The translations under genes were made by a program, and so were the position numbers. Shown piece after piece: positions 7,013 through 48,706 of a DNA stretch of 64,000 bases (position 1 is its first letter; the number at the start of each line of letters is the position of its first letter). The stretch lies in NCBI GenBank assembly GCA_049322215.1, contig JBMORU010000001.1, positions 194,327 to 258,326 of the forward strand, in the 5' to 3' direction. Below the pieces are notes generated by a model. It had not been told where the DNA came from, ran no database searches, and worked only from the letters and a program-made list of their open reading frames with translations. The DNA is from Patescibacteria group bacterium. Lineage in GTDB: Bacteria > Patescibacteriota > WWE3 > UBA101185 > UBA10185.

Positions 7013-7090
7013 AATCTACTCCTTGTTTTGTTGTATTTGTATGAATCTCTGGGTTTTAACCAGCATTAATTATACCATTACTATAGGACA

Positions 7091-8455: not shown

Positions 8456-9061
8456 CTAACTGTCGTGATGAGCATACTAACAGGCTCTTTATTTATAGTA
8501 AAGCCCGTGCACGCATTAGTTGTAGGTCCAATATTTGCAATAGGCTTAGTTAAGTTTTGCTTATTTCTTGTTGGAACACTAGCTGCTCCAATAACTACAC
8601 TAATACTTTTCCTTAAAAAAGGGAGTTTTTTAAAAAAACTTTTAATAACACTAACCGTATTAGTAGCAATATTTAGTATTAGTTATTTTCTTTTTAAAAC
8701 CGTTTTTCCCGAACTAAACTTTATTACATACGAATTGGGTAACGTTGATATGATCGAAACGAATACACAGTTTAAAGCTAAACCTATGAACGGCGCAGCC
8801 CCTGCCGGACTAGTGTTAAAAAACTCGTTTACAAAGGTTGAGATAGCAAAAATGGGTATATTTATTGCATTAGTAACAACTCTATTAACAAGCCCCGTAG
8901 TTGGTGTTATGCAAATAATAATGTATTTGGTACAAAAAAAGCACTTGATACTAAAAAAAGTACTATTAACAAGTATTCTTGTAGGTTTAATTTTGGGTAT
9001 AGCAATTTCTTACTTTTTAATGGGAACCATATTACACACAGAAGGCCTACTAACAATTTAA
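8438..9061 (+). CDS. hypothetical polytopic membrane protein
   Basis: 207 aa, 5-6 predicted TM helices; no recognised motif. Confidence 0.4.
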   Translation: MNFKTQLTVVMSILTGSLFIVKPVHALVVGPIFAIGLVKFCLFLVGTLAAPITTLILFLKKGSFLKKLLITLTVLVAIFSISYFLFKTVFPELNFITYELGNVDMIETNTQFKAKPMNGAAPAGLVLKNSFTKVEIAKMGIFIALVTTLLTSPVVGVMQIIMYLVQKKHLILKKVLLTSILVGLILGIAISYFLMGTILHTEGLLTI

Positions 9062-9067
9062 AAATAA

Positions 9068-32148: not shown

Positions 32149-33564
32149 ATGGTGGGAAATAAACTGAATGCATATATTAAAAATTATCTATATTTAGATT
32201 TGAGATCATTAGCCCTAGCACGCATAGGTATCGGGTTTATAATAATTTTTGACCTAGCAATAAGATATAGACAACTAGAGGATCACTATACAATAAACGG
32301 AGTAATGCCTAATTCAGTAAGACTAAAGGCATTAGCTAATCCATTATTTTCAATACATAATTTAAACGAGTCTGCTGCTTTTCAAACAATTCTTTTTATA
32401 GCAGCGGGTTTAGTAGCGTTTACTTTATTAGTAGGGTTTAAAACCAAAATTAGCACAATTGTATCTTGGCTACTTTTAGTGTCGCTGCAAAATAGAAATG
32501 AGCTAATTTTATTTGGTGGCGACATGCTTTTAGCAATGACCCTATTTTGGGGAATGTTTTTGCCCTGGGGAAAAAAGTTTTCTGTAGATGCTCTTAAAAA
32601 TAAAACTTCCGAAACAAAATATGTAGGAATTGCAGGCATCGGATTTATTCTGCAGGTGAGCTATTTATATATTTTATCTGCAATTTTTAAAACAAATGAA
32701 ATGTGGACTACCGAGGGAAGTGCTACCTACTACGCTTTAACCTCAAGAACGCCTCAAAAACCATGGGTAAATTTACTAATACCTCATGCGGATATTCTCC
32801 AAATAGCAACTTATTTAATATACGTTTTAGAACTAGTGGGGCCATTTTTTATATTTTTACCCATATTTAAAGATAAACTAAGATTTGCAGTAGTTAGTAG
32901 TTTAATTGCCCTACATGTTGGTTTAATATCATTCATGTTTTTATTATTCTTTCCTATTTTAAATATTACTGTGTTAATGGCATTGTTGCCTTCTATAGTT
33001 TGGAAACAAAAACCAGATACTAACAACTTTGTGCAAGACCAAAAATGGAAAAACATACTAGCATTTGCGTTTATAGCATTTTTTTATTATCTAAACTTAA
33101 ATTCGTTTAACAGTGCGTTAGCACCGAAACCACAAATAATAGCACAAGTAGAAAGAAACTTTAGACTAAGACAAAAATGGGTTATGTATGCAAGACCCCC
33201 ACATAGAAGCGAATGGGTTGTAGTTAAAGGTAAGACACAACAAGGCAATGATGTAGATTTAAAACAAGGTACTTTAGCAAATATTGACTACAGCAGACCA
33301 AAATATAGCTTTACACTTATACCTCAAAGAGGTTGGGTAAAATTTGAAGAAGTTTTAAAAAGAGACTTGTACCCCGGACAAATGGATTTATATACAAGAT
33401 TTTGGTGTGAGAAATGGAATAAAAACAATGAAGATAAAATTGAAACATTAGAGTTAATAAATGTTTATCAGGAATACGACGCCGCAACACAAAGTAATAG
33501 CGAAATAAAACAGGAGTTGCTAAAAACTACCGAGTGTAGTTTTAATACTTCTTTACAAGGATGA
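32149..33564 (+). CDS. HTTM-domain protein (vitamin K-dependent gamma-carboxylase-like fold)
   Basis: N-terminal LDLRSLALARIGIGFIIIFDLAIRY matches the signature opening of HTTM domains; about 8 TM helices then a soluble C-terminal domain. Confidence 0.6.
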   Translation: MVGNKLNAYIKNYLYLDLRSLALARIGIGFIIIFDLAIRYRQLEDHYTINGVMPNSVRLKALANPLFSIHNLNESAAFQTILFIAAGLVAFTLLVGFKTKISTIVSWLLLVSLQNRNELILFGGDMLLAMTLFWGMFLPWGKKFSVDALKNKTSETKYVGIAGIGFILQVSYLYILSAIFKTNEMWTTEGSATYYALTSRTPQKPWVNLLIPHADILQIATYLIYVLELVGPFFIFLPIFKDKLRFAVVSSLIALHVGLISFMFLLFFPILNITVLMALLPSIVWKQKPDTNNFVQDQKWKNILAFAFIAFFYYLNLNSFNSALAPKPQIIAQVERNFRLRQKWVMYARPPHRSEWVVVKGKTQQGNDVDLKQGTLANIDYSRPKYSFTLIPQRGWVKFEEVLKRDLYPGQMDLYTRFWCEKWNKNNEDKIETLELINVYQEYDAATQSNSEIKQELLKTTECSFNTSLQG

Positions 33565-34987
33565 TAGAAACATCGTCTAAATAAACGGTCTCCCAGTTTT
33601 TGCTAGTACGTAAGTAGGCAACAAGTGAAGAATTAGGTGTATGAATTATCCAATCAATGTTGTATTTCTCTAGTAAATCTAAATTATCTTTAGGAGATGT
33701 TTCTAAGTTTATATAATCTTCAAAAACCGACTCTCCGGTTTCGGTTCTCCACGAGGGCATGCGCCCATCAATAAATGTCTTGTGTGTTGGAAGTTGCCAA
33801 ATTAAAAAACCTCCCCACTGGTAATTGTTATACATATTTCCCGTTAGGGGAACTTCTTTCAAATAAGTGACAGCGTTATAAGGATAGTCTTTTTTTGCAG
33901 CCCAAACTCTTAGGTCTTTACTACCTGCCAAAACATCAGAATAGTTAAATATTCCATATAAAAACAAAAACCCAAAGAAAAACTTGATCACAAAAGATAG
34001 CTTTTTAGCAAAATACACACCTAACCTTCTAGCTAGCAAATTGTGCGCAAAGTAAAACATATCTAATAATGAAAAAACTGAAATAACCAAAAACAAACGA
34101 ATAAAGTATTGCGATCTAAGAGCTAACAAAGCGAAAAATACAGAAATAAGTAAATACCAGGTATTTTGTACACCTTTCTTTCTGTAAAAATTATAAAAAA
34201 CACATATTGAAATCATTAAATATAAAACAATTAAAACCAAATCCTTTGAAAAGCTTAAAGGGGTCCACTCACCAATATAAGTAAACTGAAAAGGATGTGT
34301 TTCTTTTAACAGGGTTAACCAAAGATTAATACCATAAGGATTTATAAAAGTAAGTAAAACGCCTAAGAATACAAAAAGCAAGTTAAAAACGTTTAATTTG
34401 CTAAAATTGCCTTTTTTCCAAAAAGCATAACTGTCAAATAAAACATAAGTTCCAAAAACAAATAGACCAAGTAAAAAATCGGCATGAACATTTGCCCAAA
34501 GCAAAAAAATCAATGGGGTTAAGAAAAAGTACTTTTGTTTGTAAAAAATTAAAAACATGATTAAAACCATTAACACTGTACTAAAACCCAACGGTCTTAC
34601 AGAAACATTAAATAAAGAAAGTAGCAAAAAATATAAAACGAGCACAAAAGATGAAATATACGTGGGATATGAACTCATAATATAAAAAATATAAGTAAAA
34701 GAGGCAGATATGATTAAACTAAAAACTAGGCTAATTAAAAAACTACCACCAAATGAAAAAAATAAGTGCATTAACACTTGTACCAACCAATAGGAATTTG
34801 CCCAATAATAATTTTGAAAAGTATAAGAAAATAAGTTATGTGACGGAACACTACCTGTTTCAGCTATTATTCTTCCAGATACTAAATGCCATCCAAAATC
34901 AGGGTCAAGAGGAAACTCAAGTAAAATAAATGTACCTAAAACAAATAATATGAAAAAGAATATCTTTTTATTCGCGTTTGAGTTCAT
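33542..34987 (-). CDS. polytopic membrane protein, possible GT-C-fold glycosyltransferase (GT39/ArnT-like)
   Basis: 481 aa, about 12 TM helices, early periplasmic loop DPDFGWHLVSGR; tentative. Confidence 0.35.
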   Translation of the reverse strand: MNSNANKKIFFFILFVLGTFILLEFPLDPDFGWHLVSGRIIAETGSVPSHNLFSYTFQNYYWANSYWLVQVLMHLFFSFGGSFLISLVFSLIISASFTYIFYIMSSYPTYISSFVLVLYFLLLSLFNVSVRPLGFSTVLMVLIMFLIFYKQKYFFLTPLIFLLWANVHADFLLGLFVFGTYVLFDSYAFWKKGNFSKLNVFNLLFVFLGVLLTFINPYGINLWLTLLKETHPFQFTYIGEWTPLSFSKDLVLIVLYLMISICVFYNFYRKKGVQNTWYLLISVFFALLALRSQYFIRLFLVISVFSLLDMFYFAHNLLARRLGVYFAKKLSFVIKFFFGFLFLYGIFNYSDVLAGSKDLRVWAAKKDYPYNAVTYLKEVPLTGNMYNNYQWGGFLIWQLPTHKTFIDGRMPSWRTETGESVFEDYINLETSPKDNLDLLEKYNIDWIIHTPNSSLVAYLRTSKNWETVYLDDVSIILVKKY

Positions 34988-36818
34988 ATAATCTGCTCTT
35001 TATAGCTATATAACCTGGGGCACGTAGATTAAACACTGTTTGAAATTCACTGCCATCTATGGAGACATCTCCTTTATCAGTTTTAAACGTTATTTTTGTA
35101 GTACGTCCGTTGTTGCCAATATCTACGTCGACATCACTAACTTTAGAATACTTGCCACCGTATTTATCAGCCTTTTCAGCCATTTCGTCCACAGAGTAAG
35201 GATCTCCTCCCCAGCAACTTGTTGTTACAGGGGTAATGTGTTTATCATCATCATTAGATCCTTTACGCCAAACTACCCAAGCATTTAAAATATCGGCCAT
35301 TTCTTTTTCATTTAGCCAAGGGGAAGATCTACCGCAGGAATCGCTATCGAACCTGGTTCCTTTTGTCCACCATGCCCAGTAAAACCACGGGGAACCTGCT
35401 TTTTTCTCGTACGCGTCTTTTGGCCAGCTACCACTTACATCCCAACCAACGCCATCATCTATATAGCCGCCTGTTGTAGAAGAATACATTGCGTGCGTAT
35501 CACCACCTATTATTTTTCCTTTAGTATCATCAACAGCTTTTTCCCATCGTTCTGGAGGATTATTAGCTTTACTCTTTAAAAACACCTGACAATTTTGGTT
35601 AGTACAAATAGATTTACCTGCTTTCACATAGCGATAAGCATATGTTCTTGCTGCAATAGCTTGTGCTTTTAGTGCATCTTCTGGCCAATCACTAGGCATT
35701 TCTGCAATTCCATATAAATAATACTGAAAGTCTAGTTCACCTTCACCATCAACTTTTACTTTACTTGGGAAATCGTCTGCTTTTTTAACATCATTTTTAT
35801 AATAAAACTTAATAATGTCTTCGTAGCTATCACCAGCTTCAGCACGACCTTTCGCGCCATACTGACTCATACCTCTATAGTGTGTATAAGCACCATAGCT
35901 AAAAGCTGCAAAGGCAGGGCTAAACGAAGGGCTAGGTACGCTCCAATCAGGAGATTCATAATCACCAACTGTTCCGTTTATATCTGCATTTTTTTGATTC
36001 AAAACCTCTTGCTGCTTGGCACTTAAACTTGCAATTTCTTCAGATAATGACTTTAACTCACCTTCATAGTCACCTTCTTTTTCTTCAATATTGCCCAACT
36101 CAGATTGAGCTAACACTTTTTCGCTGCTTAAGTTATCTCTAACTGCAAGTAAATTGGCCTGGGATTCTTCTAAATCTTGTTTTATTTCTTCGGCGGCTGC
36201 TTTATCTGTTTCAAAATTTGTAATTTCCGCATTTAAGATATCAATTAGCCTTAAAGCTTCCGAAGAAACCGCTTTATCAAACATGTAATTTACAGTGGCA
36301 TATTCAAAGCCATTTAAATTATTATTTTGCACATTTGCAGAAAGTATTATTTCTAAATCTGATAAAATTCCCTTTTGGTAATGAGACCTAATAACTTTAT
36401 TTCTTAATGCGGTTTTTTCTTCTAAGGATCCTCTTCTATCTGTCAAATTTTCCTCTATAACTGTTAATTCTTTAACTAAAGAATCTATACTTAGTTGGAG
36501 TGCATCGATTTCTGATTGTTTTATTGATAACTGGGAAGACAGAGTTGATATTTGCGAATTAACTGCATCTTTTTTATTTCTTAAATCGTTTAATTTAGAG
36601 CTTAATGATTGATATTCTTCTTCTTTTTCTTCCTTTTCTTCAGCATAACAAGCAGCTTTGTCGTCTAAATCACTAATGTTTTTACAAGGGTCTTCGGCAC
36701 TAACAGAAAAAGTAAACAAAACGAAAAATAGTGCTATGAAAACAATTAGGACTTGACTCTTAAAGGATGGGCACGGATAATTTTTACAAGACATACACTG
36801 GAAATTATAGCAAAACAA
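34968..36818 (-). CDS. SpoIID/LytB-domain protein with N-terminal signal/TM and long coiled-coil region
   Basis: C-terminal SpoIID-like motifs (GMSQYGAKGRAEAG, EALKAQAIAARTYAYRY); heptad-rich 60-300 region. Confidence 0.65.
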   Translation of the reverse strand: MFCYNFQCMSCKNYPCPSFKSQVLIVFIALFFVLFTFSVSAEDPCKNISDLDDKAACYAEEKEEKEEEYQSLSSKLNDLRNKKDAVNSQISTLSSQLSIKQSEIDALQLSIDSLVKELTVIEENLTDRRGSLEEKTALRNKVIRSHYQKGILSDLEIILSANVQNNNLNGFEYATVNYMFDKAVSSEALRLIDILNAEITNFETDKAAAEEIKQDLEESQANLLAVRDNLSSEKVLAQSELGNIEEKEGDYEGELKSLSEEIASLSAKQQEVLNQKNADINGTVGDYESPDWSVPSPSFSPAFAAFSYGAYTHYRGMSQYGAKGRAEAGDSYEDIIKFYYKNDVKKADDFPSKVKVDGEGELDFQYYLYGIAEMPSDWPEDALKAQAIAARTYAYRYVKAGKSICTNQNCQVFLKSKANNPPERWEKAVDDTKGKIIGGDTHAMYSSTTGGYIDDGVGWDVSGSWPKDAYEKKAGSPWFYWAWWTKGTRFDSDSCGRSSPWLNEKEMADILNAWVVWRKGSNDDDKHITPVTTSCWGGDPYSVDEMAEKADKYGGKYSKVSDVDVDIGNNGRTTKITFKTDKGDVSIDGSEFQTVFNLRAPGYIAIKSRLYELKRE

Positions 36819-37165
36819 TGCTTAAAACTATACGTAATAAAAAAACAATATTAGTTTCATTAGGTATTTACTATTTCAATACTCTATTACTTTTAATGCT
36901 TCCTCAACAAGCATATGCACAATGTACCGATCCTGATACATGCGATCTTGGCGATTTAATTAGATCGGTATATGATGTAGCACGCCCCCTAGCAATAATA
37001 TTTGGTTTTATAATGATATTGGTTGCGGGTTACAAAATAACTACAAGCCAAGGAGACCCTATGAAAGTAAAAGTAGCAAAAGAAGACATGTCTTCTGCTA
37101 TACTTGGTTTAATATTTGTGCTTATTGCTGTGGGATTTTTAAGAATGATACTAAATAATTTATAA
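36818..37165 (+). CDS. small secreted two-helix membrane protein, VirB2/TrbC-like pilin candidate (paralog 1 of 4)
   Basis: Signal peptide ending AYAQ; hydrophobic helix, conserved S/T-x-GDP-x-K-x-A core (SQGDPMKVKVA), second hydrophobic helix. ORF-track start 36767 trimmed to MLKTIRNKK. Confidence 0.45.
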   Translation: MLKTIRNKKTILVSLGIYYFNTLLLLMLPQQAYAQCTDPDTCDLGDLIRSVYDVARPLAIIFGFIMILVAGYKITTSQGDPMKVKVAKEDMSSAILGLIFVLIAVGFLRMILNNL

Positions 37166-37185
37166 AATAAAAGGAGGTGTAAAAA

Positions 37186-37518
37186 ATGATATTACAAGAT
37201 GTATATGCTCAAATACCAACCACGGTAGTACAACCTCAACCTTTAGGTGTTACTACTCTAGCTGATGCTTTTGGTATTGCGACCAACGTTATTTTAGGAG
37301 CAGGTGTAGCTTTAACAGTTATCTTCTTAATTTTAGGAGGTATAAAATACATGTCTGCTAAGGGAGATCAAAAGGCAGCTGTAGAAGCAAGAAGTGCTTT
37401 AACAAACGCAGTTATTGGATTTATCGTAGTTATTGGAGCTTTCACAATTAGAATTGTTGTAACTAGTGTTATCGGTGGTAATGAAAACGTTGCAATACAA
37501 GACGTTGTACCTAACTAA
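37186..37518 (+). CDS. VirB2/TrbC-like pilin candidate (paralog 2 of 4)
   Basis: AGGAGG RBS 9 nt upstream; same helix-KGDxKAA-helix architecture (MSAKGDQKAAVEA). Confidence 0.45.
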   Translation: MILQDVYAQIPTTVVQPQPLGVTTLADAFGIATNVILGAGVALTVIFLILGGIKYMSAKGDQKAAVEARSALTNAVIGFIVVIGAFTIRIVVTSVIGGNENVAIQDVVPN

Positions 37519-37591
37519 AGAAGACTTTTCGGGACCCTGGGAAACCAGGGTCTCATTCAACAGTTTTTAGTTTATTGAATTTAGGATTATC

Positions 37592-37909
37592 ATGGCAGTT
37601 TTTGCACAGTTTGATGAGCATTTGCCTTCGGGATGCGAAGGGTGTGATGCAATAGAAATAGGAGAAATATTAGCAGTAGGCGTAAACTTATTTATGGGTA
37701 TTGCTATTTCAATGTCAACCCTTGGAATGTTATATTCAGGGGTTAAATGGGTTATGTCAAAAGGAGACCCAAAAGCAGTTGCAAATGCCAGAACTTCTTT
37801 GGTTTATAGTATAATTGGTTTCATTTTAGGTATTGGAGCACTATCTTTGAAGGTAGTTGTATTCAACAATATTGGAGATCCAGGAATAGATGATGTACCA
37901 AACTTTTAA
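37592..37909 (+). CDS. VirB2/TrbC-like pilin candidate (paralog 3 of 4)
   Basis: Same architecture (MSKGDPKAVANA). Confidence 0.45.
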   Translation: MAVFAQFDEHLPSGCEGCDAIEIGEILAVGVNLFMGIAISMSTLGMLYSGVKWVMSKGDPKAVANARTSLVYSIIGFILGIGALSLKVVVFNNIGDPGIDDVPNF

Positions 37910-38333
37910 AAAAACTTTAATTACACTTGTTTTAACACTAACATTATTTGCAAATTTTAGTGGAGTTGCCTATGCACAAGATTGTGACATTGGTGATGAA
38001 CCTACCCCTGTACAAATTGTTTGCCCTTTGCAAAAAACTTTAGTAGTTATTTACTACAGCTCAGGAGCGTTTTTTTTAATAATGGTTTTTGTTACTTCTT
38101 ATAAATTCTCAACATCACAGGGTGATCCAAAGGCAATGCAGGCAGCAAAACAGTCTTTAACATATACAGTACTTGGATTTGTTTTAACTATAACTACTTT
38201 TGCAATAACGTTTTTTATAGGAAGACAATTTGACTCGCCTTCACTAGCCGATCCAAATAGTCCTTTTACAAGCTTAACTACAGGAATATGTAATATATTG
38301 CAGTTTGCTAATATAAGCGCTCCGGGCTGCTAA
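37890..38333 (+). CDS. VirB2/TrbC-like pilin candidate (paralog 4 of 4)
   Basis: Signal peptide ending AYAQ; STSQGDPKAMQAA core; C-terminal Cys-containing extension. Confidence 0.45.
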   Translation: MMYQTFKKTLITLVLTLTLFANFSGVAYAQDCDIGDEPTPVQIVCPLQKTLVVIYYSSGAFFLIMVFVTSYKFSTSQGDPKAMQAAKQSLTYTVLGFVLTITTFAITFFIGRQFDSPSLADPNSPFTSLTTGICNILQFANISAPGC

Positions 38334-38349: not shown

Positions 38350-38883
38350 CTAATAGGCTTCTAAAAATTCTCCGGGAGCAGGAGGAGTTGATATCCATAC
38401 GTAACGCACAGGCTCAACAAGCTTTTCTCCATTTGCACCTGTTAGTTCAACAGTAATTACGTACCTGGTATTTGGTTCCCATGGTTTACGTGGAAAAACT
38501 CTAACCTTAGAAGGATCTTCCTCAACAAGTACTTGAGCACCTAATTGAATATCAGGAGTTACAAAAATTTTTACAGAATCTTCTTTCACTGGAGCTGAAA
38601 ATGTCATGTGAATTATTTGAAATTCGTTATAAAAGTATTTATCTAAGTCATTTGCAGGAGGATCTACTTCTAATAAAAAGATTTCACCAACTTCTCCTGG
38701 CTGGGGTTTATCATCAATACCGGGAATACCTCCTGGTGTATCAGGTACCACAACCGGGTTTTGAGGAGTACGTGGCGCTGACGTGGGACGCAGAAAATAA
38801 TAAAGTATTACAAAACCTATTATTAAAACAAGAATTACAACTGCAGCTTTGTACTTTTTTAAACGCTCAATAAAGTTTTTCAT
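38350..38883 (-). CDS. hypothetical membrane-anchored protein with Pro-rich stalk (T4SS-locus associated)
   Basis: N-terminal TM AAVVILVLIIGFVILYYF, Pro-rich linker, about 100-aa C-terminal domain. Confidence 0.4.
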   Translation of the reverse strand: MKNFIERLKKYKAAVVILVLIIGFVILYYFLRPTSAPRTPQNPVVVPDTPGGIPGIDDKPQPGEVGEIFLLEVDPPANDLDKYFYNEFQIIHMTFSAPVKEDSVKIFVTPDIQLGAQVLVEEDPSKVRVFPRKPWEPNTRYVITVELTGANGEKLVEPVRYVWISTPPAPGEFLEAY

Positions 38884-38907: not shown

Positions 38908-41900
38908 TTAATCTTCTGGCCACCAAGAAGGTGCTCCTGGAGGCGTACCAGAACATAATCCTGAAGTTTCAGGTCTTACGGTACTACCACCTGCATCTTG
39001 AGCTTCTATATGAACGTGAGTATTGTTACCCCAGTTAAAAGTAGAGGAAAATGCTTCGCCAGGTAAATAGTCACCACCTTGAGCATTACCTAAATGCTGA
39101 ATTTTAATGGTCAGCCTTGGAGTACCATCTTGTGCAAACCCTTGCGCAGTAACAGCTTGTCCCAATGACAAACTGTAAGGCTCAGATACTGTCCAATAAG
39201 AAACATCCCCTGCAGAGGGTAAACAAACAGTTGAATCCTCTTGATAATCAACAGGGAATACATCCCATGCAAAACCAAATTCATTGCCTTGAGGTACAGT
39301 GCCATTATTGTAACAATAGTTATCTTGTGGAAAAGTACCTCCTCCGGTATCAGCATTTAAATTTGGTGCTCTTAAAGCAACACCAAGCGAAGGAATATAA
39401 GAATTACACAAAGTAATTGGTACTGCATCCCAATAAGTATTTGATCCATGACCACCTCCTGGATGTACAGCAGTGTCATTTCCTCGGTAAGAACCCACTG
39501 TAAAACCGTCTACATCTTTAAAAAAACAAAAGTTTTCGCAATATAGTTCTCCATAATTAACATCCCCCACAGGACCCCCTTCAACTTCTACATCACAGCC
39601 ACCGCCACAACCACCCACTTTTCTTGTAGGATCTATAGGAGAAATAGTAGTGAACATACCCATAATCACTATTATGGTTACTGCCATAACACCGGCCAAG
39701 GGCAAAGTACCTAAAGCTACCCATTTCATAAGTTTAATAAACATTGCTTCGGCACCACTTACTAATGAAGAAAAGTCTAAGTGAATTATTGCTTTACCTA
39801 CGGCTTCTAGAGCGTCAAGTATTTTTATAATCAAATACTGAATGGCAAGCTTTAAAGGAGTAGCAATACCCTCGGAAGCTACTAAAATAGCGTCGGTTAT
39901 TAATTCTGCAAGTATTTTCTTTAAATATTGTATTGGGGCTACAACTGCAGCTAGTTTTGTAAATGCTGCAGATTGTAAAACGTTAAGAGCTGAAGTTAAC
40001 TTTTGTAATGCACCACCATATTCCTCTGTAATTTTTAGTAAATTAATTTTGGAATTTCGCAAACTCAACTTTTGAATCAATTCATATAAAGCTGATTCGC
40101 TTAGCTGAATACCTTGTTTATCTAAAAAGGCACGAAGTTTTTGTATTTTGTCATACAATTCTTCAACTTTAACAGGAACAACTAGCTTCATGTCTTTAAG
40201 CATTTCGGCTAATTCTTCTACACTTTTAGCACCAAAAAGGCGTTGTAGGTTTTCTATTCCACCTTTTTCTCCTAATTTCAAAACTTCGTTTAGTAAATCT
40301 ATATCTTCAAAGTGTTTTCCTCCCTGAAGGGTTAAAGTTGTAACAACACCGTTTATAGTTACATCAACTTTTAGCTTATTTGAAAAAACACCAAGCTTCA
40401 TTAACTGTTGGAACGGAGCATACGCTAAGTCTTTATAATCTGAGTCATAAACTAAGCCGAAGCCATGTGTTCTCTTTATTAAGTATTCTTCAATTAACTT
40501 AGCTGGAGTAATTGGAAAGCGAATTTTAACCTTCATCCAAACTAAGTTGTTAAGAAATATTCCACTGCTTAGTTGTGACGAAATATCGCGGGCGGTTTCT
40601 CTTAAACGCATTACTTGAGCAATATCCATCCATGATGCAATTTTTGCACCACCTTCAATACCAAAAGAATTCAATATTTCTATAACGTAAGGAGCATCAG
40701 GCATTTTACTGCCCTTTAATAAACGCTCTTCCATTAAATATTTCAAAAAGGTGCGCTCTACACCATCACCAAAAAGAGATCCTTTACCTACAACGTCTGC
40801 AACTAAAGACCCACCTGAAAATCTATCTTTAAATACTTCTATTCTCGTAGCTAAAGTACGCAATGCAGCACCATCCCCTGCCATAGCAGCTTCTACTAAA
40901 GGGGTAAACCCTGTGTCGGTACGTTCATCAAAAATTGCTTTTCTAAAGTCATCAACAAAGTTATGTAAAGGTTTGACTGAATTTTCAAAAACCTCAACCA
41001 TTTCAGTCATGCCGCTTATAGTATCTTGCGCATAAGCACCACTTAAAGACGTAGCAAGCCCTTGTGCACTGGTTAGTTGTTTATCTAAAAGCTTCAATGC
41101 TGAATCTAAAGACGCTTCATTACCTTCACGTAAGGCTTTAGACACAGCCTTGTTAGCATTATTTATAGTTTTTCCAATACCACCTAAAGTAGTTGCTAGC
41201 TCAAACTCATCAATTGCAGTATTAATTGTGGTAGATATTTGAGCTAAATCCTCAGCACTATTTAATAAAGGATTGCTACCTAATAATGAGTCAGATAATA
41301 CCTTAACTTTCTTTCCATCAATTGTTCTTTCTACAAAATGGGTATTTTTAATCTCTTCTAAATGAGCCTTGTATATGTCAGCACCTTTTTGTGCAACCCC
41401 TATATAACTGGAATCTCTTGCTGTAGGACTTCTTTTATCGTTAACGAATTTACCAAAAGCAGTAGTAAATTCTTCGTACATATTTATATTTTTATCTACT
41501 TCTGCTACCGAAGAAGCCTGACCTTTCACATACCCTGAATAATCATAAAGTTTTTCTACACGATTAACTGTTTCATCGGCTAAAGATAAATCTTTACCCA
41601 TACGTTGTTGTAACAAGTCTTTTGCAGTATCAAAGCCGAAACCAAGCTTACCTTTACCATTCATCATGGCAACAAACATGTCTCTTTCAGCACGCAAATC
41701 CATGTCGGAATAACTGAAAAACTCAGTGCCCATACTTTTAACAAAGCTAGAAACACCTTTTTGAGGTTGAGTTACCATTTTATGTAAATCAACCTTTAAC
41801 GAAGTTACACCGGCAAGTTCTTCTTCATCTCCCGAAGCTTGAACATCGACCATGTCAAATTTTCTTGGGGCTCCGGTTACACGCAAAGATCTTTTAGCAT

Positions 41901-42111
41901 CGGCAACCATGTTGTTATATACAAATGTAATTGGAGTAGCAGGTAACTTATAAGCTTCTGAAATTTTATCAAAGGCTGCATCAATATCAGCATCTAAATC
42001 TTCGTAGATGCTGAAGTCACTTTCATAAGGTCTTGAATAGAATCTACCTTGTGCAGGTATCTTTCTATCGCCCGGATAGTATCCGATATTAAACGGGTTA
42101 CCACTTGCCAT
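38908..42111 (-). CDS. large (1067 aa) membrane protein with C-terminal extracytoplasmic M23-like peptidase domain (putative T4SS-associated cell-wall hydrolase)
   Basis: About 800-aa cytoplasmic helical region, TM block at about aa 790-830, then Cys/Gly-rich domain with AVHPGGGHGS and THVHIEAQDAGG, resembling the M23/LytM H-x(n)-D and HxH zinc motifs. Confidence 0.45.
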   Translation of the reverse strand: MASGNPFNIGYYPGDRKIPAQGRFYSRPYESDFSIYEDLDADIDAAFDKISEAYKLPATPITFVYNNMVADAKRSLRVTGAPRKFDMVDVQASGDEEELAGVTSLKVDLHKMVTQPQKGVSSFVKSMGTEFFSYSDMDLRAERDMFVAMMNGKGKLGFGFDTAKDLLQQRMGKDLSLADETVNRVEKLYDYSGYVKGQASSVAEVDKNINMYEEFTTAFGKFVNDKRSPTARDSSYIGVAQKGADIYKAHLEEIKNTHFVERTIDGKKVKVLSDSLLGSNPLLNSAEDLAQISTTINTAIDEFELATTLGGIGKTINNANKAVSKALREGNEASLDSALKLLDKQLTSAQGLATSLSGAYAQDTISGMTEMVEVFENSVKPLHNFVDDFRKAIFDERTDTGFTPLVEAAMAGDGAALRTLATRIEVFKDRFSGGSLVADVVGKGSLFGDGVERTFLKYLMEERLLKGSKMPDAPYVIEILNSFGIEGGAKIASWMDIAQVMRLRETARDISSQLSSGIFLNNLVWMKVKIRFPITPAKLIEEYLIKRTHGFGLVYDSDYKDLAYAPFQQLMKLGVFSNKLKVDVTINGVVTTLTLQGGKHFEDIDLLNEVLKLGEKGGIENLQRLFGAKSVEELAEMLKDMKLVVPVKVEELYDKIQKLRAFLDKQGIQLSESALYELIQKLSLRNSKINLLKITEEYGGALQKLTSALNVLQSAAFTKLAAVVAPIQYLKKILAELITDAILVASEGIATPLKLAIQYLIIKILDALEAVGKAIIHLDFSSLVSGAEAMFIKLMKWVALGTLPLAGVMAVTIIVIMGMFTTISPIDPTRKVGGCGGGCDVEVEGGPVGDVNYGELYCENFCFFKDVDGFTVGSYRGNDTAVHPGGGHGSNTYWDAVPITLCNSYIPSLGVALRAPNLNADTGGGTFPQDNYCYNNGTVPQGNEFGFAWDVFPVDYQEDSTVCLPSAGDVSYWTVSEPYSLSLGQAVTAQGFAQDGTPRLTIKIQHLGNAQGGDYLPGEAFSSTFNWGNNTHVHIEAQDAGGSTVRPETSGLCSGTPPGAPSWWPED

Positions 42112-42227: not shown

Positions 42228-43610
42228 ATGACAAAGAGACTCTTAACCACAACATTTATAACATTACTAATAACAGGTGTTTTCGTTCTTGTGCCTAGAA
42301 ATGTTTTTGCGCAAGATTCTTGTAATATTGGAGAGGTTAATGGATGTACATTTACACCCGCTCCAGATGGAAATGCAGAAAAATGTTTATTCGAAGGTGA
42401 AAGAGCAAACCATCCCCTTTTAGACATTAGAAGAACAATGAAAAATTCTATAGTTTCTTTACTTGTAGACACTGGTACAAGTGTTGCAACAGGTAGAAGT
42501 TTAAATCAAATCATTGATTGTATTGGACAGGAATATGCAAACATTTGTAATGCAGGTTCTGATCAAGATTATTGGAATGCCGTTGGTGAACAATGTGGTT
42601 TTTCAGTCATCCCTGGTTCTAATGCTGCAGCCAGAGCACGCGGTAGTTTGGCAGGTATTACTTACACAGTAGGTAGTGCTATGAGTGCAGATCATCCTAT
42701 TCCCACAAACTTAGCTCATTATTTTAGATATCAAGTAAGAAACGTACCTGTATTGGGCGATAGAGTTTACGCTCAAGTAGATTACAATATTTTAGGAGCA
42801 GACTTTATACTACAGTTATGGCAAGTGTTTAGAAACGTCGCTTACGGAATATTAGCAATAGTAATGATAGTAATAGGTGTAATGATTATGGTACGCAAAA
42901 AAATCAGCCCTCAGGTAATTGTAACCGTACAAAACGCCTTACCAAGAGTAGTGCTAGGTGTATTGCTTATTACATTTAGTTACCCAATAGGTGCTACAGG
43001 AGCTGCTTTAATTTGGCCATTAAGAACCGTAGTAGACGGGATAATGAATGATCTTGGAGCAGGCTTTGCAGTTTCCGAAGCAGGATTTGGTGCAATTGTA
43101 ATGTTAATAATCACAGCTGTAATAGCAGGTATGTTTTTTGGAGGCCCTATAGGAGTAATGGCAATTGGGCTATCTGCTGTATCTTTGACAATAATGGTAA
43201 TGTTAATATGGATAATAATTCTATTAATTGCCTTAATGAAAACAATAACCGTGTACGTAAGAATATTAATGATGATAGTGTTTGCTCCCGTTCAATTTGC
43301 AATAGGTACTGTGCCGGGCAATGAGAAAATGATTAAGGATTGGTTTAAGTTATTAGCTGCAAGAATAGTAGCCATACCCGCAATGTATTTTATGATTTCA
43401 TTAGCAGGATTCATAATTAATCAATCACTAAACGCAGGTTTTGATCCAGCAGCATCTCCAGCAGGAAGTGAGTTACTAGCTTGGTTAGAAGCATCAGGAC
43501 AAACAGCAGTTATAATGTTATTCGTTCCATTCTTGTCCATTTACTTACTAATAACAGCCGTAGGTATGCCTAAGAAAATAGAAAAGTTATTCATGGGCAT
43601 CAAGAGATAA
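42228..43610 (+). CDS. VirB6/TrbL-like polytopic membrane protein
   Basis: Signal peptide, about 180-aa extracytoplasmic N-domain, then 5-6 TM helices rich in Gly/Ile/Met; position in locus consistent with VirB6. Confidence 0.4.
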   Translation: MTKRLLTTTFITLLITGVFVLVPRNVFAQDSCNIGEVNGCTFTPAPDGNAEKCLFEGERANHPLLDIRRTMKNSIVSLLVDTGTSVATGRSLNQIIDCIGQEYANICNAGSDQDYWNAVGEQCGFSVIPGSNAAARARGSLAGITYTVGSAMSADHPIPTNLAHYFRYQVRNVPVLGDRVYAQVDYNILGADFILQLWQVFRNVAYGILAIVMIVIGVMIMVRKKISPQVIVTVQNALPRVVLGVLLITFSYPIGATGAALIWPLRTVVDGIMNDLGAGFAVSEAGFGAIVMLIITAVIAGMFFGGPIGVMAIGLSAVSLTIMVMLIWIIILLIALMKTITVYVRILMMIVFAPVQFAIGTVPGNEKMIKDWFKLLAARIVAIPAMYFMISLAGFIINQSLNAGFDPAASPAGSELLAWLEASGQTAVIMLFVPFLSIYLLITAVGMPKKIEKLFMGIKR

Positions 43611-43679: not shown

Positions 43680-45776
43680 ATGGCTTTAAAAGACACACAA
43701 AAAGTAAATAAACAGCACGCAGTACCACAAAATATAATGGATGTGGAATTTAAAATAATTGGTGAATTAACTATGCGCCAATTTTTTTACCTTCTTATTT
43801 TTGGGGGAATTGGATATGGAGCATTTACACTTATCAGTAATTCTTTAATTAAATGGCCAATAATTTTGGCTTCAGCAGCATGTGGTTTACTGTTAGCATT
43901 TGTACCAGTGCAAGAACGAAGCATAGACGAATGGGTGGTTAACTTCTTAAGGGCTATATACAGAACCAATCAAATGATTTGGCGAAAAGATCCTACAATT
44001 CCAACCGCCTTCCTATACCAAAGTCTGGATGTAGTAAGACAGGAATTAATTACATTAGCACCTACTTCTAGTAGAAGAAAATTAGAAGAGTATCTGCAAT
44101 TTAAAGATGAACCCAAAGTTAGTGACGATCTTGATATTCCAGAAATTGATTTTATACAAAAAGTACATCAGGCATTTGCATACGATGCTAAACAAACAAA
44201 GAAAGCACAAAGTAGCATTAAAACAACACAATTTAACACACAAGTCACACAGCAAGTACAGGCACCGCCTCAGATAACTACTACGACACAACAACCAATA
44301 GCTATGCCAAAGCAACAAGTGACACCACCTGCCGAAATACCTAATCAATCAGCACCAAAAATTAACCCACATCCTACAATTGTACAGGAGTCTCCTGTAA
44401 CACCATCTAAAAAAGAAACTATATCTCCTATAGAAGTACAACCTGACACTTCATCTAAAAATGACACCGAAAATAAGCAAAATACTAGAGATATGCTTAA
44501 TAAGACCGAGCAACAACCACAAGCACGTACTGTAATCAAGCCTCCAGAATTGCCAAAAAGAGAGACGAAAAATCAAGAACTAAGTAAACCAACTCCTCCG
44601 CAGTTTAATATAGCCAAAAAGCCAGAACCAGAATTACAGCAACAACCTCAATTTAAGCCAGAGCTACCAAAATTTGAAGTATCAAAAGAAACAAATGAGC
44701 CTTCAACACCAAAGGTAGCTACAGAAAAGGAGGAAACACAAGACACTATTAACAGAGTCACACCAGCACCAGCACCAGCACCAGCACCAGCACCAGCACC
44801 AGCACGGCAAGAGGCACCTCCCCAACCTCCAGAGCTAGAGTTGCCAGACATTGAAACGGGACAGGATTTAACACTTGTGCCTATTACTCCCAACAGGCAT
44901 ACTGGAAGAAGATTCACTAGCTTATTACCAACTCAAGGTGAGATATTATTACCCATACGCGGAGAAAGAGTTTTAAAAACCACAGAAGAAGCTAATATAG
45001 AAAATGAAATAGCTGAAAAAGCTAAGCAACTAAGACTAATGATTGAACAAATAAAACAAGACGAAAAATTCAGATCTACTATAACTAAATTTCAAACTGC
45101 TAAGCCTTTGCAGGAAGATGGTTATAAACTACCAAAGATAGAAACAGCAGAACACGAAGCACAGCTAAATAAAGAAGCAAAAGAAGTTATAGAAACAGTA
45201 GAAGAAGAAAATACAAGATTAACAAAAGAAATAGAACAATTAAAAACAGATTTGGAAACCACAAATAAACCACAAGAAGCGCAAGAAAAGAAAGAAGAAT
45301 TAACCAAGTTAGAACAAGAAAAAGCCGAGGTATTAAAAAACTACGAAGCATTAAAGCAAAAAGTACAAGAACTAGAAGAAAAACTAGAAAAAAAACAAGG
45401 CGAACTGCCTAAAATAATAGTTCAAAAAGTTTACGATAACGGAGGCACCGACACACAACCAACAACTAACCCTACAATAGCTCAAATACAACCACTAACA
45501 AATGCGCCTAACATTATATCTGGCGTAGTAAAAAGCACCAATGGTGAAACATTAAGTGGAGTTGTAGTAATAATAAAAAACCAAAAAAATGAACCAGCAA
45601 GGGCGCTAAAAACAAATGCATTAGGACAATTTTCGATAACTACACCTTTATCTAATGGTACCTATATTATTGAAGTAGACAAGTTTAATAAAACTAATTT
45701 AAGCTTTGATATAATAAGCATTGAAGCTAAAGGAGAGGTTCTTCCACCTTTGGAATTTGTAGGAAAACCAGTTTAG
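43680..45776 (+). CDS. VirB3-like membrane module fused to a long Pro/Gln/Glu-rich linker, coiled coil and C-terminal CarboxypepD_reg-like beta-sandwich domain
   Basis: N-terminal about 100 aa with two TM helices (FFYLLIFGGIGYGAFTLI; WPIILASAACGLLLAFV), like VirB3/PrgI; (PA)8 repeat; EQLKTDLE... coiled coil; C-terminal ISGVVKSTNGETLSGVVVIIKN. Confidence 0.4.
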   Translation: MALKDTQKVNKQHAVPQNIMDVEFKIIGELTMRQFFYLLIFGGIGYGAFTLISNSLIKWPIILASAACGLLLAFVPVQERSIDEWVVNFLRAIYRTNQMIWRKDPTIPTAFLYQSLDVVRQELITLAPTSSRRKLEEYLQFKDEPKVSDDLDIPEIDFIQKVHQAFAYDAKQTKKAQSSIKTTQFNTQVTQQVQAPPQITTTTQQPIAMPKQQVTPPAEIPNQSAPKINPHPTIVQESPVTPSKKETISPIEVQPDTSSKNDTENKQNTRDMLNKTEQQPQARTVIKPPELPKRETKNQELSKPTPPQFNIAKKPEPELQQQPQFKPELPKFEVSKETNEPSTPKVATEKEETQDTINRVTPAPAPAPAPAPAPARQEAPPQPPELELPDIETGQDLTLVPITPNRHTGRRFTSLLPTQGEILLPIRGERVLKTTEEANIENEIAEKAKQLRLMIEQIKQDEKFRSTITKFQTAKPLQEDGYKLPKIETAEHEAQLNKEAKEVIETVEEENTRLTKEIEQLKTDLETTNKPQEAQEKKEELTKLEQEKAEVLKNYEALKQKVQELEEKLEKKQGELPKIIVQKVYDNGGTDTQPTTNPTIAQIQPLTNAPNIISGVVKSTNGETLSGVVVIIKNQKNEPARALKTNALGQFSITTPLSNGTYIIEVDKFNKTNLSFDIISIEAKGEVLPPLEFVGKPV
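44759..44806 (+). repeat. hexanucleotide microsatellite (CACCAG/CCAGCA) x about 7.5 encoding (Pro-Ala)8
   Basis: caccagcaccagcaccagcaccagcaccagcaccagcaccag read directly in the sequence. Confidence 0.85.
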
Positions 45777-45777
45777 T

Positions 45778-46482
45778 ATGGCAGCACAAAGTGTAAAAGC
45801 AACAACTCAAGATCATTTAGACATAGAAGATATTAAAGATAACTTCGTTGTGTTGAAAAATGGAACAGTATGTTCTGTATTGCAAACTACAGCAGTAAAT
45901 TTTGATCTTCTATCTGAAATCGAGCAAGATGCTATTATTGCAGCATTTTCTATGTTATTAAACTCAATAACATTTCCTGTTCAGGTTGTTATTAGATCAA
46001 AAAAACTGGATATAACAAAATATATAGAAAAAGTCATAAAGGTAGAAAATAAACTTACAGATCCGCTAATTAAAAGACAGGCAGAATCTTACAGAAAATT
46101 TGTACAAGAAATTATTCAAAAAAATGAGGTTTTAGATAAACAATTTTATGTTGCAGTACCCGCAGGTGACAACATGATTACAGAAGTAGGATCTAATCCG
46201 TTCGACTTTTTAACCAAGTTGTTTGGAGCTCAATCAAAAAGAGTCAATGTTAATGTAGATGCAGCAATAAGTGGCGCACAGGCAAAATTAATGCCAAAAG
46301 TAGATCACATAGTTAATGAGTTTAATAGAATTGGAGTAAAAACTAGGCAATTAACTACACACGAACTGGTAGAATTATATTTCGATATATATAATCCAGC
46401 ATCTGTGCACGGGCAGAAAATAAGAACAGATATAGAAGATTATAAAACAGCTATAGTAGAACCAGCTATATTTGCAGAATAA
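45778..46482 (+). CDS. hypothetical protein resembling a VirB4 N-terminal domain
   Basis: DHLDIEDIKDNFVVLKNGTVCSVLQTTAVNFDLLSEIEQDAIIAAFSMLLNSITFPVQVVI follows the layout that opens VirB4/TraE N-domains; starts 1 nt after the upstream stop. Confidence 0.4.
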   Translation: MAAQSVKATTQDHLDIEDIKDNFVVLKNGTVCSVLQTTAVNFDLLSEIEQDAIIAAFSMLLNSITFPVQVVIRSKKLDITKYIEKVIKVENKLTDPLIKRQAESYRKFVQEIIQKNEVLDKQFYVAVPAGDNMITEVGSNPFDFLTKLFGAQSKRVNVNVDAAISGAQAKLMPKVDHIVNEFNRIGVKTRQLTTHELVELYFDIYNPASVHGQKIRTDIEDYKTAIVEPAIFAE

Positions 46483-48706
46483 AAATACTATGAAATTGTT
46501 TGGCAAGAAAAAACAACAAAATGCGAATACTGAAAATCAAACCCTAGCGCAAAATCAAGCAGGGGCTCAAAAAGTAAATGCAGCACCTCCAATAACAACA
46601 CCAGAAACAAGAGCAAAGAAAAACAAAAATAAAAACGAAGAAAAACCTGCCGAAATGTTGGCTAGAGGAATGGTTAATATCAAAGATATAGTAGCACCAC
46701 CTGCTATCGAGGTGGATTTTAACCATATAAAAATTGGGAATAACTTTTACAGAACATTATTTATTTCAGGATACCCTAGATTTGTAGGCGCAAACTGGTT
46801 ATCTCCAATAATTAATTTTGAACATACTTTAGACATTTCATTTTTTTACTATCCTGTGAAATCAAAAGGTGTTTTAGATGACTTAAGAAGAAAAATAACG
46901 GAAATGGAAGCTACAATGCATTCTGATGAAGATAGAGGTAAAATAGCCGACCCTGGTGTAAAAATAGCATTAGACGATGCAAAAACTTTACAGGAACAAC
47001 TAGTAAAAGGTGTTGAAAAATTTTTCCAGTTTTCCTTTTATATAACTATTAGAGCAAATTCCATGGAAGAATTGGAAAATGCTGCCAGTAAATTAGAATC
47101 AACATTGGGATCACTATTATTAATATCAAAATCAGCAACTTTACAAATGGAGGAAGCTTTTCAATCTACAGTACCTGTAGCCCTAGATAAACTATTAATA
47201 ACTAGAAACATGGATACAACTAGTTTAGCCACTACATTTCCTTTTACATCGTCAGATTTAACATCTGACGATGGAATAATGTACGGACTTAACAAGCACA
47301 ACGGTTCTTTAATTATTTTTGACAGATTCTCTCTTGAAAATGCAAATACAGTAGTATTTGCTAAATCCGGTTCAGGTAAATCGTATTTTGTGAAATTAGA
47401 AGCACTTCGTTTAATAGCATTTGGTGCAGAAATTATTATTATTGACCCCGAAGCAGAATATAAACCAATCGCTGAGGTTATTGGTGGAGATTTTATAAGT
47501 TTTTCTTCTACTTCACCGGATAGAATAAATCCATTTGACCTTTCAGGTATTGCTACAGAAGGGGAAAATGAATTAGGTCAAAAGATTTTATCTTTACACA
47601 CGCTATTTAAACTTGTACTAGGAGATTTAACACCCATTGAAGAAGCTATATTAGACAGAGCACTAATTGAAACATACAGAATAAAAGGAATTACAACAGA
47701 TCCAGATACACAAAGAACAAAAGAACCTCCTGTAATGGAAGATTTATACAAGGTACTTTTAGGTGCAGAAGAACCAGAAGCAAGAAGCATGTCAGAAAGG
47801 TTAGAAAAATATATTAGAGGCTCTCTAGCAGGAATTTTTGACCAACAATCTACATTAAGAATAGACAATAGAATGACTGTATTTTCTACACAAAATTTAG
47901 AAGATGCTTTAAGACCAATTGCTTTTTACATTATTTTAGACTTCGTTTGGACGAAAGTTAAAAAAAGCTTAAAGAAAAGAATTTTAATAGTAGAAGAGGC
48001 TTGGTACTTGTTACAAAACGAAGACAGCGCACGCTTTATTTATGGTATAGCAAAAAGAGCCAGAAAATATTACTTAGGTTTAACAACGATTACTCAAGAC
48101 GTAGATGACTTTTTAGCCTCAGATTATGGAAAAGTCATTGTTACAAATTCATCTATCCAAGTGCTTTTAAAACAGCACCCTGCAGGAATTGATAGACTAG
48201 CTGATACATTTTACCTATCTGAGGGAGAAAAGCGTTTACTGCTCGCTGCAGAACGCGGAGAAGGACTATTTTTCGCTGGAGCTAATCACGTAGCCATTAA
48301 AATCATGGCTTCCGAAGAGGAACACAACTTAATTACTACAAACCCTGAAGAAATTTTAAGAATGAAGGAACAACGAGAACAAGCTCAATTACAAGCGGCA
48401 CAACCACAACCAGGAAGTACAGATAAAAAGTATGAAAGATTTGAAAGATTAGACCCAAATAGATACACTACAAACCCAAATGATTCAACACGTCCTGCAC
48501 AAGCACCAAATCCTATGAGCAGCCCTATGCAACCTGGGCCTTTGCCAAATCAAAACCCAATAGTACAACCAACAATGCCTATGCAATCACCGCAACCCAC
48601 ACAAACTCCAACACCGCCACAAAACAACGCTGAAACAGTAAGTTTAAATACTGAAGACCCACAGGATAATACAGGAACAATTTCGCTTTCAAATAATCAA
48701 GTTTAA
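46472..48706 (+). CDS. VirB4/TraE-family type IV secretion ATPase with Gln/Pro-rich C-terminal tail
   Basis: Walker A VVFAKSGSGKS, IIIDPEAEYKP and Walker B-like RILIVEEAWYL segments typical of VirB4; N-domain YRTLFISGYPRFV; last about 110 aa low complexity (QAQLQAAQPQPGS...PQPTQTPTPP). Confidence 0.75.
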   Translation: MQNKNTMKLFGKKKQQNANTENQTLAQNQAGAQKVNAAPPITTPETRAKKNKNKNEEKPAEMLARGMVNIKDIVAPPAIEVDFNHIKIGNNFYRTLFISGYPRFVGANWLSPIINFEHTLDISFFYYPVKSKGVLDDLRRKITEMEATMHSDEDRGKIADPGVKIALDDAKTLQEQLVKGVEKFFQFSFYITIRANSMEELENAASKLESTLGSLLLISKSATLQMEEAFQSTVPVALDKLLITRNMDTTSLATTFPFTSSDLTSDDGIMYGLNKHNGSLIIFDRFSLENANTVVFAKSGSGKSYFVKLEALRLIAFGAEIIIIDPEAEYKPIAEVIGGDFISFSSTSPDRINPFDLSGIATEGENELGQKILSLHTLFKLVLGDLTPIEEAILDRALIETYRIKGITTDPDTQRTKEPPVMEDLYKVLLGAEEPEARSMSERLEKYIRGSLAGIFDQQSTLRIDNRMTVFSTQNLEDALRPIAFYIILDFVWTKVKKSLKKRILIVEEAWYLLQNEDSARFIYGIAKRARKYYLGLTTITQDVDDFLASDYGKVIVTNSSIQVLLKQHPAGIDRLADTFYLSEGEKRLLLAAERGEGLFFAGANHVAIKIMASEEEHNLITTNPEEILRMKEQREQAQLQAAQPQPGSTDKKYERFERLDPNRYTTNPNDSTRPAQAPNPMSSPMQPGPLPNQNPIVQPTMPMQSPQPTQTPTPPQNNAETVSLNTEDPQDNTGTISLSNNQV

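Follow-up and report, generated by a model that had tools for sequence, protein, structure and literature searches.

Tandem arrays of VirB2-like pilin genes are a described feature of the type IV secretion systems (T4SSs) of Patescibacteria, and the locus treated here, four consecutive small genes (P1 to P4) in a 64-kb window (the whole stretch that was analysed, 64,000 nucleotides of contig JBMORU010000001.1 from a Patescibacteria group bacterium of the WWE3 lineage), belongs to this kind. A survey of 3,035 Patescibacteria genomes using PF04956, PF18895 and other profiles found VirB2-like pilins near virB4 in 1,135 assemblies and uncovered 441 arrays, which comprised 2-11 pilin genes averaging 25% identity, often lay near dnaA, generally had no relaxases and were suggested to aid adaptation to different hosts (PMC12102498, Quiñonero-Coronel et al. 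2025). In Southlakia epibionticum ML1, which bears a six-pilin array, the T4SS cluster including the pilin series is essential for epibiotic growth, as established in this one tested species (PMC10633639, Wang et al. 2023). According to a 2025 review, the pilins of Patescibacteria are the only known VirB2-like pilins in monoderm T4SSs, and the monoderm pilus is still hypothetical (PMC12857230). Since such arrays are already published (PMC12102498, PMC10633639), the first-pass annotation, which had read the genes as four tandem paralogous VirB2/TrbC-like pilins, correctly recognised a described kind of locus, and the window adds little on the existence of such arrays. Beyond the two studies it shows that four types keep their order, that two of them, P2 and P3, are leader-poor and that a conserved stem-loop follows the P2 type. 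These additions refine the published idea of host-range diversification towards a model of major and minor subunits and suggest a testable division of labour between a conserved, leader-poor, putatively strongly expressed P2 and three specialised subunits.

Like the published Patescibacteria arrays (PMC12102498, PMC10633639), that of the window consists of tandem two-helix pilins of the PF18895 type with ~25% mutual identity, lies beside virB4, trsD, prgI and virB6 homologues near dnaA, with no relaxase or type IV coupling protein (T4CP) found nearby. Unlike them, it comes from a WWE3-like lineage, comprises exactly four types in a kept order and has a conserved stem-loop after the P2 type; two of its types have no Sec signal peptide, in contrast to the TM7x array, which is described as 'Sec secreted' (PMC12102498). 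The terms 'signal peptide', 'terminator' and 'WWE3' do not occur in the text of PMC12102498.

With the VirB2/TrbC/TraA pilins (PF04956; T-pilus, RP4, F and R388) the window proteins share the small size, the predicted two-helix hairpin, the basic loop predicted to be cytoplasmic and a VirB4 in the locus, and P1 and P4 also carry signal peptides, predicted to be cleaved so that the mature protein begins at Gln or a residue close to it. The differences are that the host of the window locus is monoderm, that the remaining machine is of the Gram-positive type and that no sequence match to solved pilins was detected. Canonical conjugative pilins have unusually long leaders of 30-50 aa, in contrast to the 6-8 aa of P2 and P3. 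The Mbov_0395 family (NF045849) of Mycoplasma integrative and conjugative elements (ICEs) likewise comprises a small protein with two transmembrane (TM) segments beside VirB4 in a wall-less or monoderm T4SS, but its ICE context has conjugation genes and none were found among the scanned window ORFs. Several tandem VirB2 copies per genome are also known from Anaplasma, Bartonella and Rickettsia; those copies are similar and thought to vary antigenically or in host interaction, whereas the window copies appear to be ancient, architecturally distinct types in a kept order.

Four PF18895-type pilins in a conserved order

The four consecutive small open reading frames (ORFs) on the + strand were confirmed, encoding proteins of 105-147 aa (Table 1), with P3 and P4 overlapping by 20 nt. 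An upstream ATG at 36767 would extend P1 to 132 aa, and the gene calls of sister contigs give the 115-aa form. The same arrangement with identical proteins is present on contigs of two independent sequencing runs, so the array is not an assembly artefact. An iterative search of the 64-kb window with P1-P4 found no additional pilin ORF. P2 is identical to the protein with locus tag ACOZAO_01245 of an NCBI metagenome-assembled genome named 'Patescibacteria group bacterium', and its named relatives are mostly from candidate division WWE3.

Hydropathy and charge analysis resolved each of the four proteins into two hydrophobic segments around a short, Lys-rich basic loop. In pairwise comparison P2-P4 are 21-32% identical to P1, and the only core residues invariant over the four are K, G, D, A and G. 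Because all four match one Pfam model (PF18895, T4SS_pilin) and recover one another in iterative searches, the paralogy is far beyond chance. The loop motif [ST]xGDPK[AV], which had been ascribed to all four, is exact in P3 (SKGDPKAV) and P4 (SQGDPKAM), while P1 reads SQGDPMKV and P2 AKGDQKA.

The PF18895 scores of P1 (34.6-35.1 bits), P2 (32.7 bits) and P3 (28.7 bits) exceed the gathering score of 26.6 bits, and the E-values of P1-P4 are 2e-8, 8e-8, 1e-6 and 1e-5. P4 was recovered by iterative search from each of P1, P2 and P3, and genes of its type are clear in related arrays. Against PF04956 (TrbC/VirB2; gathering score 27.9 bits), P1 reached 22.3-23.0 bits and P4 15 bits, both sub-threshold, and P2 and P3 gave no match. 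Over 52 family members from the window and the related loci, PF18895 matches 49 and PF04956 nine at E <= 0.01 (best E 1.4e-7), a pattern that indicates, at the level of profiles, remote relatedness and not membership. The best NCBIfam match of P1-P4 is NF045849, with 28.2, 27.7, 20.3 and 23.3 bits, below the cut-off of 40 bits. The long Sec signal peptide typical of VirB2/TrbC, which signal peptidase I removes, has a predicted counterpart in P1 and P4 and none in P2 and P3. As judged from sequence, the four proteins belong to PF18895 and appear VirB2-like by architecture and genomic role, but membership of PF04956 is not demonstrable; they may have originated from two-TM proteins of monoderm T4SSs. 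The pilin identification is supported by the PF18895 matches of all four and by the T4SS locus, and the outcome that the first-pass annotation had named as decisive against it, no similarity to VirB2/TrbC profiles and a stronger one to unrelated families, is not what the searches returned.

In total, 19 related genomic loci (given below by L numbers) were fetched with a P2-family profile, and their ORFs were searched iteratively with P1-P4 and typed by single-pass scores. The order P1 type (1-3 copies), P2 type (1-2 copies), P3 type, P4 type was found in 10 of the 11 complete related arrays, the exception being L012 with P2, P1, P3, P4. P2-type genes scored 97-116 bits against the window P2 and the other three types 42-75 bits against their counterparts, making P2 easily the best conserved of the four; divergent P3 relatives occupy the third position, P4-type genes (45-74 bits) the last, and the flanking genes are syntenic as well. 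As distinct types in a fixed order fit old, specialised subunits better than the recent diversification of redundant copies, the comparison suggests an array of old, specialised and non-redundant subunits, with variability concentrated in the P1 ectodomain and copy number.

Each type has its own architecture. P1-type proteins (115-613 aa, first array position) combine a signal peptide, a variable and often Cys-rich ectodomain of ~20 to ~530 residues and a C-terminal pilin domain. The window P1 is a minimal form, with a signal peptide ending in ...QQAYAQ before C, a short C-x5-C ectodomain, the pilin hairpin and the loop TSQGDPMK. P2-type proteins start with a short leader and lack an ectodomain; the window P2 begins with MILQDVYA followed by Q, lacks a hydrophobic signal peptide and carries the loop AKGDQK. 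AF2 models P2 as a hairpin of two helices (residues 25-57 and 62-96), in which pLDDT is ~90. A word-index search found 122 clusters of P2 homologues, the best 120 of the 122 being 50-71% identical, and the same search with P3 returned no homologue besides P3 itself. P3-type relatives were recovered only by iterative search inside the fetched loci; this type is related to P2, evolves fast, mostly has no signal peptide and in many cases terminates in ...PNF. The window P3, which starts with MAVFAQ... and ends in VPNF, lacks a signal peptide; its N-tail is very acidic (net charge -6) and contains C-x2-C, and its loop reads SKGDPK. P4-type proteins combine a signal peptide with a QIxCP motif and extend into a C-terminal tail; in the window these are ...GVAYAQ before D, QIVCP and a tail of ~35 aa with two Cys, and the loop is SQGDPK. 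The signal peptides of P1 and P4 are classical, N-terminal and hydrophobic, 30-35 aa long, and end in AYA with predicted cleavage before Q.

Long Cys-rich N-terminal ectodomains, giving totals of 245-613 aa, were observed on the P1-type genes L015:8080-9921, L010:6138-9888, L014:8858-9979, L005:9013-9981 and L004:7372-8265. L010 bears three large-ectodomain P1-type genes in tandem (6138-9888), and in the L015 protein a Glyco_hydro_42-like segment (E = 6e-8) is fused to the pilin domain. These proteins look like pilins displaying adhesin or enzyme modules, and the first-position subunit, fused in relatives to variable Cys-rich or enzyme-like ectodomains, is a plausible determinant of host specificity.

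Damaged P2-type copies were observed in the WWE3 metagenome-assembled genome (MAG) GW2011_GWC2_44_9, where L016:520-708 is a 62-aa fragment with a frameshift-like tail and L016:869-1186 a 105-aa copy in which the loop and the last part of helix 1 are missing; they would be explained either by P2 duplicates in decay or by a faulty assembly. Three loci labelled 'uncultured Gammaproteobacteria' (L017, L018 and L019; CAYOLO010000001.1, CAYROP010000007.1 and CAZKYX010000041.1) show the same CPR-type (candidate phyla radiation) locus, with six tandem PF18895-like pilins and a VirB6-like gene in each and the SpoIID-like gene and PrgI fusion in L017 and L018; these labels are probably wrong, and several third-party annotation (TPA) MAGs labelled 'Saccharibacteria' likewise resemble WWE3. 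On the Saccharibacteria-labelled chromosome OZ246412.1 (L020:9038-10231) three tandem pilins all have classical signal peptides, and the leader-poor P2 and P3 types therefore appear, in this small sample, to be specific to the WWE3-like clade.

Short leaders of P2 and P3

Hydropathy analysis bore out that P1 and P4 have signal peptides ending in AYAQ and that P2 and P3 have none, a difference for which non-ATG starts or a different processing route had been offered as explanations. Alternative starts are excluded, because an in-frame TAA lies one codon upstream of the P2 ATG and an in-frame stop seven codons upstream of the P3 ATG, and because no hydrophobic peptide is encoded upstream of either start in any frame; in addition, the short leader is kept in P2 relatives. 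A different processing route is a live option. Annotation pipelines should leave the short N-termini of P2 and P3 unrepaired.

Among 26 aligned P2 homologues, Ala8 is the sole invariant N-terminal residue. The leaders of the P2 family are 4-19 residues long (MVYA, MLTKVYA, MSLLQQVYA, MTNLLDVLTSSALA) and end in [V/A]-x-A, and 90 of the 109 members have no hydrophobic stretch before the first helix (9-residue hydropathy maximum < 2.0). Read as maximal ORFs, the P2-type genes of the fetched loci are low in N-terminal hydrophobicity, none exceeding 1.6 except a single gene at 1.98. A hydrophobic leader is likewise missing from most P3-type genes (L003 and L013 are clear exceptions and L010 is borderline) and is present in every P1-type and P4-type gene whose 5' end is intact. 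The kept [V/A]-x-A motif at positions -3 and -1 suggests that the mini-leader of P2 still matters, and it may mark a putative cleavage site. At the other end of the P2 family, 65 of the 109 members close with F, 15 with L and 8 with Y (88 of 109 together).

The N-tail bears a net charge of 0 or below in 95% of P2-family members and the loop a positive one; among the window proteins, tail charges range from -2 to -6 and loop charges from +1 to +3. Acidic tails with a positive loop are consistent with a hairpin in N-out/C-out orientation. In the Pf3 coat protein and subunit c of the F-type ATP synthase, short acidic N-tails cross the membrane via YidC without a signal peptide, and by analogy we infer a YidC-type insertion, independent of a Sec signal, for P2 and P3. 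Taken further, the two could represent an undescribed leader-poor class of T4SS pilins that are inserted by YidC and processed at the conserved mini-leader and the conserved C-terminal aromatic end (...V-x-P/N-F-COOH), and the four ordered types would then build a heteropolymeric pilus, a proposal that is speculative and quite improbable as a whole. Head-to-tail cyclisation as in TrbC, VirB2 and TrhA is one possibility under it, and P2 would then form the shaft as the major part, with P1 displaying variable adhesin or enzyme domains on the monoderm cell.

Expression signals, proposed roles and rival explanations

A Shine-Dalgarno sequence lies 8 nt before the P2 ATG, and the Shine-Dalgarno AAGGAGGUGU also precedes the P2-type genes of L003, L004, L005 and L010. 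Directly 3' of P2 a GC-rich 10-bp stem-loop, GGGACCCUGG-GAAA-CCAGGGUCUC, stands out from a region of 33% GC with a minimum free energy (MFE) of -23 kcal/mol (z = -3.05 versus shuffles). The P1/P2 junction is tight (20 nt) and P3 and P4 overlap, unlike the P2/P3 junction that holds the stem-loop. A GC-rich hairpin follows the last P2-type gene in 9 of 11 related loci, usually with a U-run directly after it. In other pilus operons, a hairpin after the gene of the major subunit sets the ratio of major to minor subunits, and the Shine-Dalgarno and stem-loop at P2 appear to resemble that layout. The sigma-70-like promoter candidate upstream of P1 has 10 of 12 matches, and the evidence for it is weak since such sites are no commoner in the region than in shuffled sequence. 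By the gene calls of the sister contigs, the SpoIID-like ORF and P1 are separated by 23 nt, which leaves almost no spacer and thus places the promoters of both within neighbouring coding sequence.

The favoured reading, which is held to be reasonably probable, is an operon of four non-redundant PF18895 pilin paralogues within a chromosomal, origin-proximal, monoderm-type T4SS, with major and minor roles and a filament. P1-P4 would be two-helix membrane hairpins with acidic N- and C-tails facing outward and a Lys/Arg-rich loop (K-x3-5-G-D-x-K) in the cytoplasm. P1 and P4 would enter the membrane via Sec signal peptides cut between AYA and Q, and P2 and P3 would insert by N-tail translocation without a Sec signal, as YidC-dependent hairpins in the manner of ATP-synthase subunit c and Pf3 coat. 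Once inserted, the pilins would be drawn out of the membrane by the VirB4, TrsD-like, PrgI/VirB3-like and VirB6-like components and assembled into a filament or conduit at the cell surface, which would serve host-cell interaction and not conjugation. From its conservation, strong Shine-Dalgarno and stem-loop, P2 is probably the major structural subunit, and P1, P3 and P4 probably have specialised functions at low abundance, for instance as tip, adhesin, initiator or anchor. Of this reading, the family membership, the topology signals, the kept gene order, short leader and hairpin and the T4SS setting are observations, from which the major and minor roles, the YidC route, the filament and the part played in host interaction are inferred.

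Several observations weigh against this reading. In no member of the Patescibacteria has a filament built from these proteins been seen (PMC12857230). The PF18895 score of P4 is 25.7 bits, 0.9 bit under the gathering score. Searching the Protein Data Bank (PDB) with profiles of the P2 family and of the 52-member alignment gave no match to a solved conjugative pilin, and fold searches return generic helical hairpins only, so that a VirB2-like fold is not specifically shown. Some of the 14-residue P2-family leaders are moderately hydrophobic (9-residue hydropathy maximum 2.0-2.6) and could be unusually short Sec signal peptides. The assignment of major and minor roles is built on conservation and expression signals, not on abundance data. 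L004 and L005 lack a clear hairpin after the P2-type gene, and the window stem-loop has no adjacent U-run; the U-run starts at 37565, ~10 nt downstream, for which reason an intrinsic-terminator scan of the window did not flag the stem-loop, which is therefore graded as a candidate attenuator or 3' stabiliser and not as a proven terminator.

That no extracellular pilus is formed, and that the four proteins are instead membrane-embedded accessory or channel subunits of a monoderm T4SS comparable to Mbov_0395, PrgF or TcpD/TcpE, is doubtful but keeps an appreciable share of the probability. It draws on the weak NF045849 matches of all four proteins (20-28 bits), on the monoderm MPF-FATA/FA character of the remaining machine (PrgI, TrsD and a CD1110-type VirB4), a kind of system that generally lacks pili (PMC12102498, PMC10633639), and on the pilus never having been seen. 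However, those scores stay under the NF045849 cut-off while the PF18895 scores, P4 excepted, pass theirs, and PF04956 is reached by nine of the 52 relatives. Surface display is further suggested by the signal peptides, disulfide-capable ectodomains and large extracellular fusions of the P1 type, and four to six paralogues with one that is conserved and putatively strongly expressed follow the logic of major and minor pilins. The antigenic or host-range diversification put forward in the first-pass annotation, in which redundant variants of one pilin would diversify for antigenic variation or the matching of host strains as proposed for Bartonella and Anaplasma, is unlikely. Although the low identity among the copies (21-32%), the host-range adaptation suggested for such arrays (PMC12102498), the variation of P1-type genes in ectodomain length and copy number, the occasional duplication of the P2 type and the fast evolution of P3 would all agree with it, the types differ in architecture from one array position to the next and keep their order from genome to genome. 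Moreover, 50-71% identity of P2 over many lineages (the best 120 of 122 clusters) is the opposite of diversifying selection, the proteins on sister contigs of two other samples are identical, and silent cassettes, repeats and recombination signals were not evident, though no search was aimed at them. Functional specialisation, the third kind of diversification named in that annotation, fits the old types and kept order better.

The N-termini of P2 (...VYAQ) and P3 (...VFAQ) resemble the tail of the AYAQ cleavage region of P1 and P4, as would be expected if both genes were 5'-truncated pseudogenes or had mis-called starts, the real proteins bearing ordinary signal peptides. This explanation is extremely improbable given the in-frame stops one and seven codons before the two ATGs, the lack of an upstream hydrophobic stretch in any frame and the consensus Shine-Dalgarno before the P2 ATG, together with the short leader, invariant Ala and intact downstream conservation throughout the P2 homologue clusters and the absence of a signal peptide from most P3-type genes of other genomes.

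The T4SS locus and its neighbours

Table 1. Features of the pilin array and the surrounding T4SS locus (positions refer to the window)
Feature	Coordinates	Strand	Remarks
SpoIID-like cell-wall protein with coiled coil	34968-36818	-	PF08486 68 bits; divergent from the array
Sigma-70-like promoter candidate TTGACT-17-GATAAT	36753-36781	+	Precedes P1; lies within the 5' end of the SpoIID-like ORF on the other strand
P1, pilin paralogue 1	36818-37165	+	115 aa
Shine-Dalgarno AAGGAGG	37171-37177	+	8 nt before the P2 ATG, read from sequence
P2, pilin paralogue 2	37186-37518	+	110 aa
GC-rich 10-bp stem-loop	37531-37554	+	Directly 3' of P2
P3, pilin paralogue 3	37592-37909	+	105 aa
P4, pilin paralogue 4	37890-38333	+	147 aa (146 aa if the start is 37893)
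177-aa single-pass membrane protein with Ig-like (Big_5-like) domain	38350-38883	-	Big_5 22.4 bits, just under cut-off; syntenic in 6 loci
1067-aa protein	38908-42111	-	One TM segment (798-816); syntenic in 8 loci
460-aa VirB6-like protein	42228-43610	+	Signal peptide, ~200-aa ectodomain, 6 TM segments (hydropathy); syntenic
PrgI (VirB3-like) N-terminal domain fused to long C-terminal region	43680-45776	+	PF12666 45.9 bits; syntenic
TrsD-like protein, like N-terminal part of VirB4	45778-46482	+	NF041427 E = 4e-10 and NF045975 E = 3e-12, both below cut-off; syntenic
VirB4-like T4SS ATPase, CD1110 family	46472-48706	+	NF045971 380.8 bits (cut-off 325); PF19044 93.7 bits

The virB4 gene lies 8 kb downstream of the pilin array and is directly followed by dnaN (48703), jag, yidC (50378) and dnaA (52077), so the locus is chromosomal, and the remainder of the 64-kb window is housekeeping chromosome. 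The VirB6-like label of the 460-aa protein, which had no match to a hidden Markov model (HMM), comes from architecture and position alone. Pfam scans of 47 window ORFs, among them every non-nested ORF of >= 400 aa but none of < 100 aa and not all of 100-400 aa, yielded neither a T4CP nor a relaxase.

The function of VirB4 was observed to be split, the 234-aa TrsD-like protein overlapping the start of the 744-aa VirB4 ATPase by 11 nt, which agrees with the abundance of TrsD reported for Patescibacteria.

The SpoIID-like gene, whose start is placed ~24 nt further in by the gene calls of the sister contigs, adjoins the pilin array wherever the flank was captured (15 related loci). The 1067-aa protein has ~800 residues before its TM segment and a Cys-rich C-terminal ectodomain of ~250 aa with an HVH motif, and matched no Pfam or NCBIfam family. 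A Peptidase_M23-like domain suspected from the HVH motif was dropped for want of HMM support, and a role of the protein as a cell-wall hydrolase is a guess.

Two multi-TM proteins without a Pfam match, at 33542-34987 (-) and 32149-33564 (+) with 10 and 6 predicted TM segments, are located between a GT87 glycosyltransferase and the SpoIID-like gene, and the former, of 481 aa, is syntenic with the SpoIID-like gene in seven related loci.

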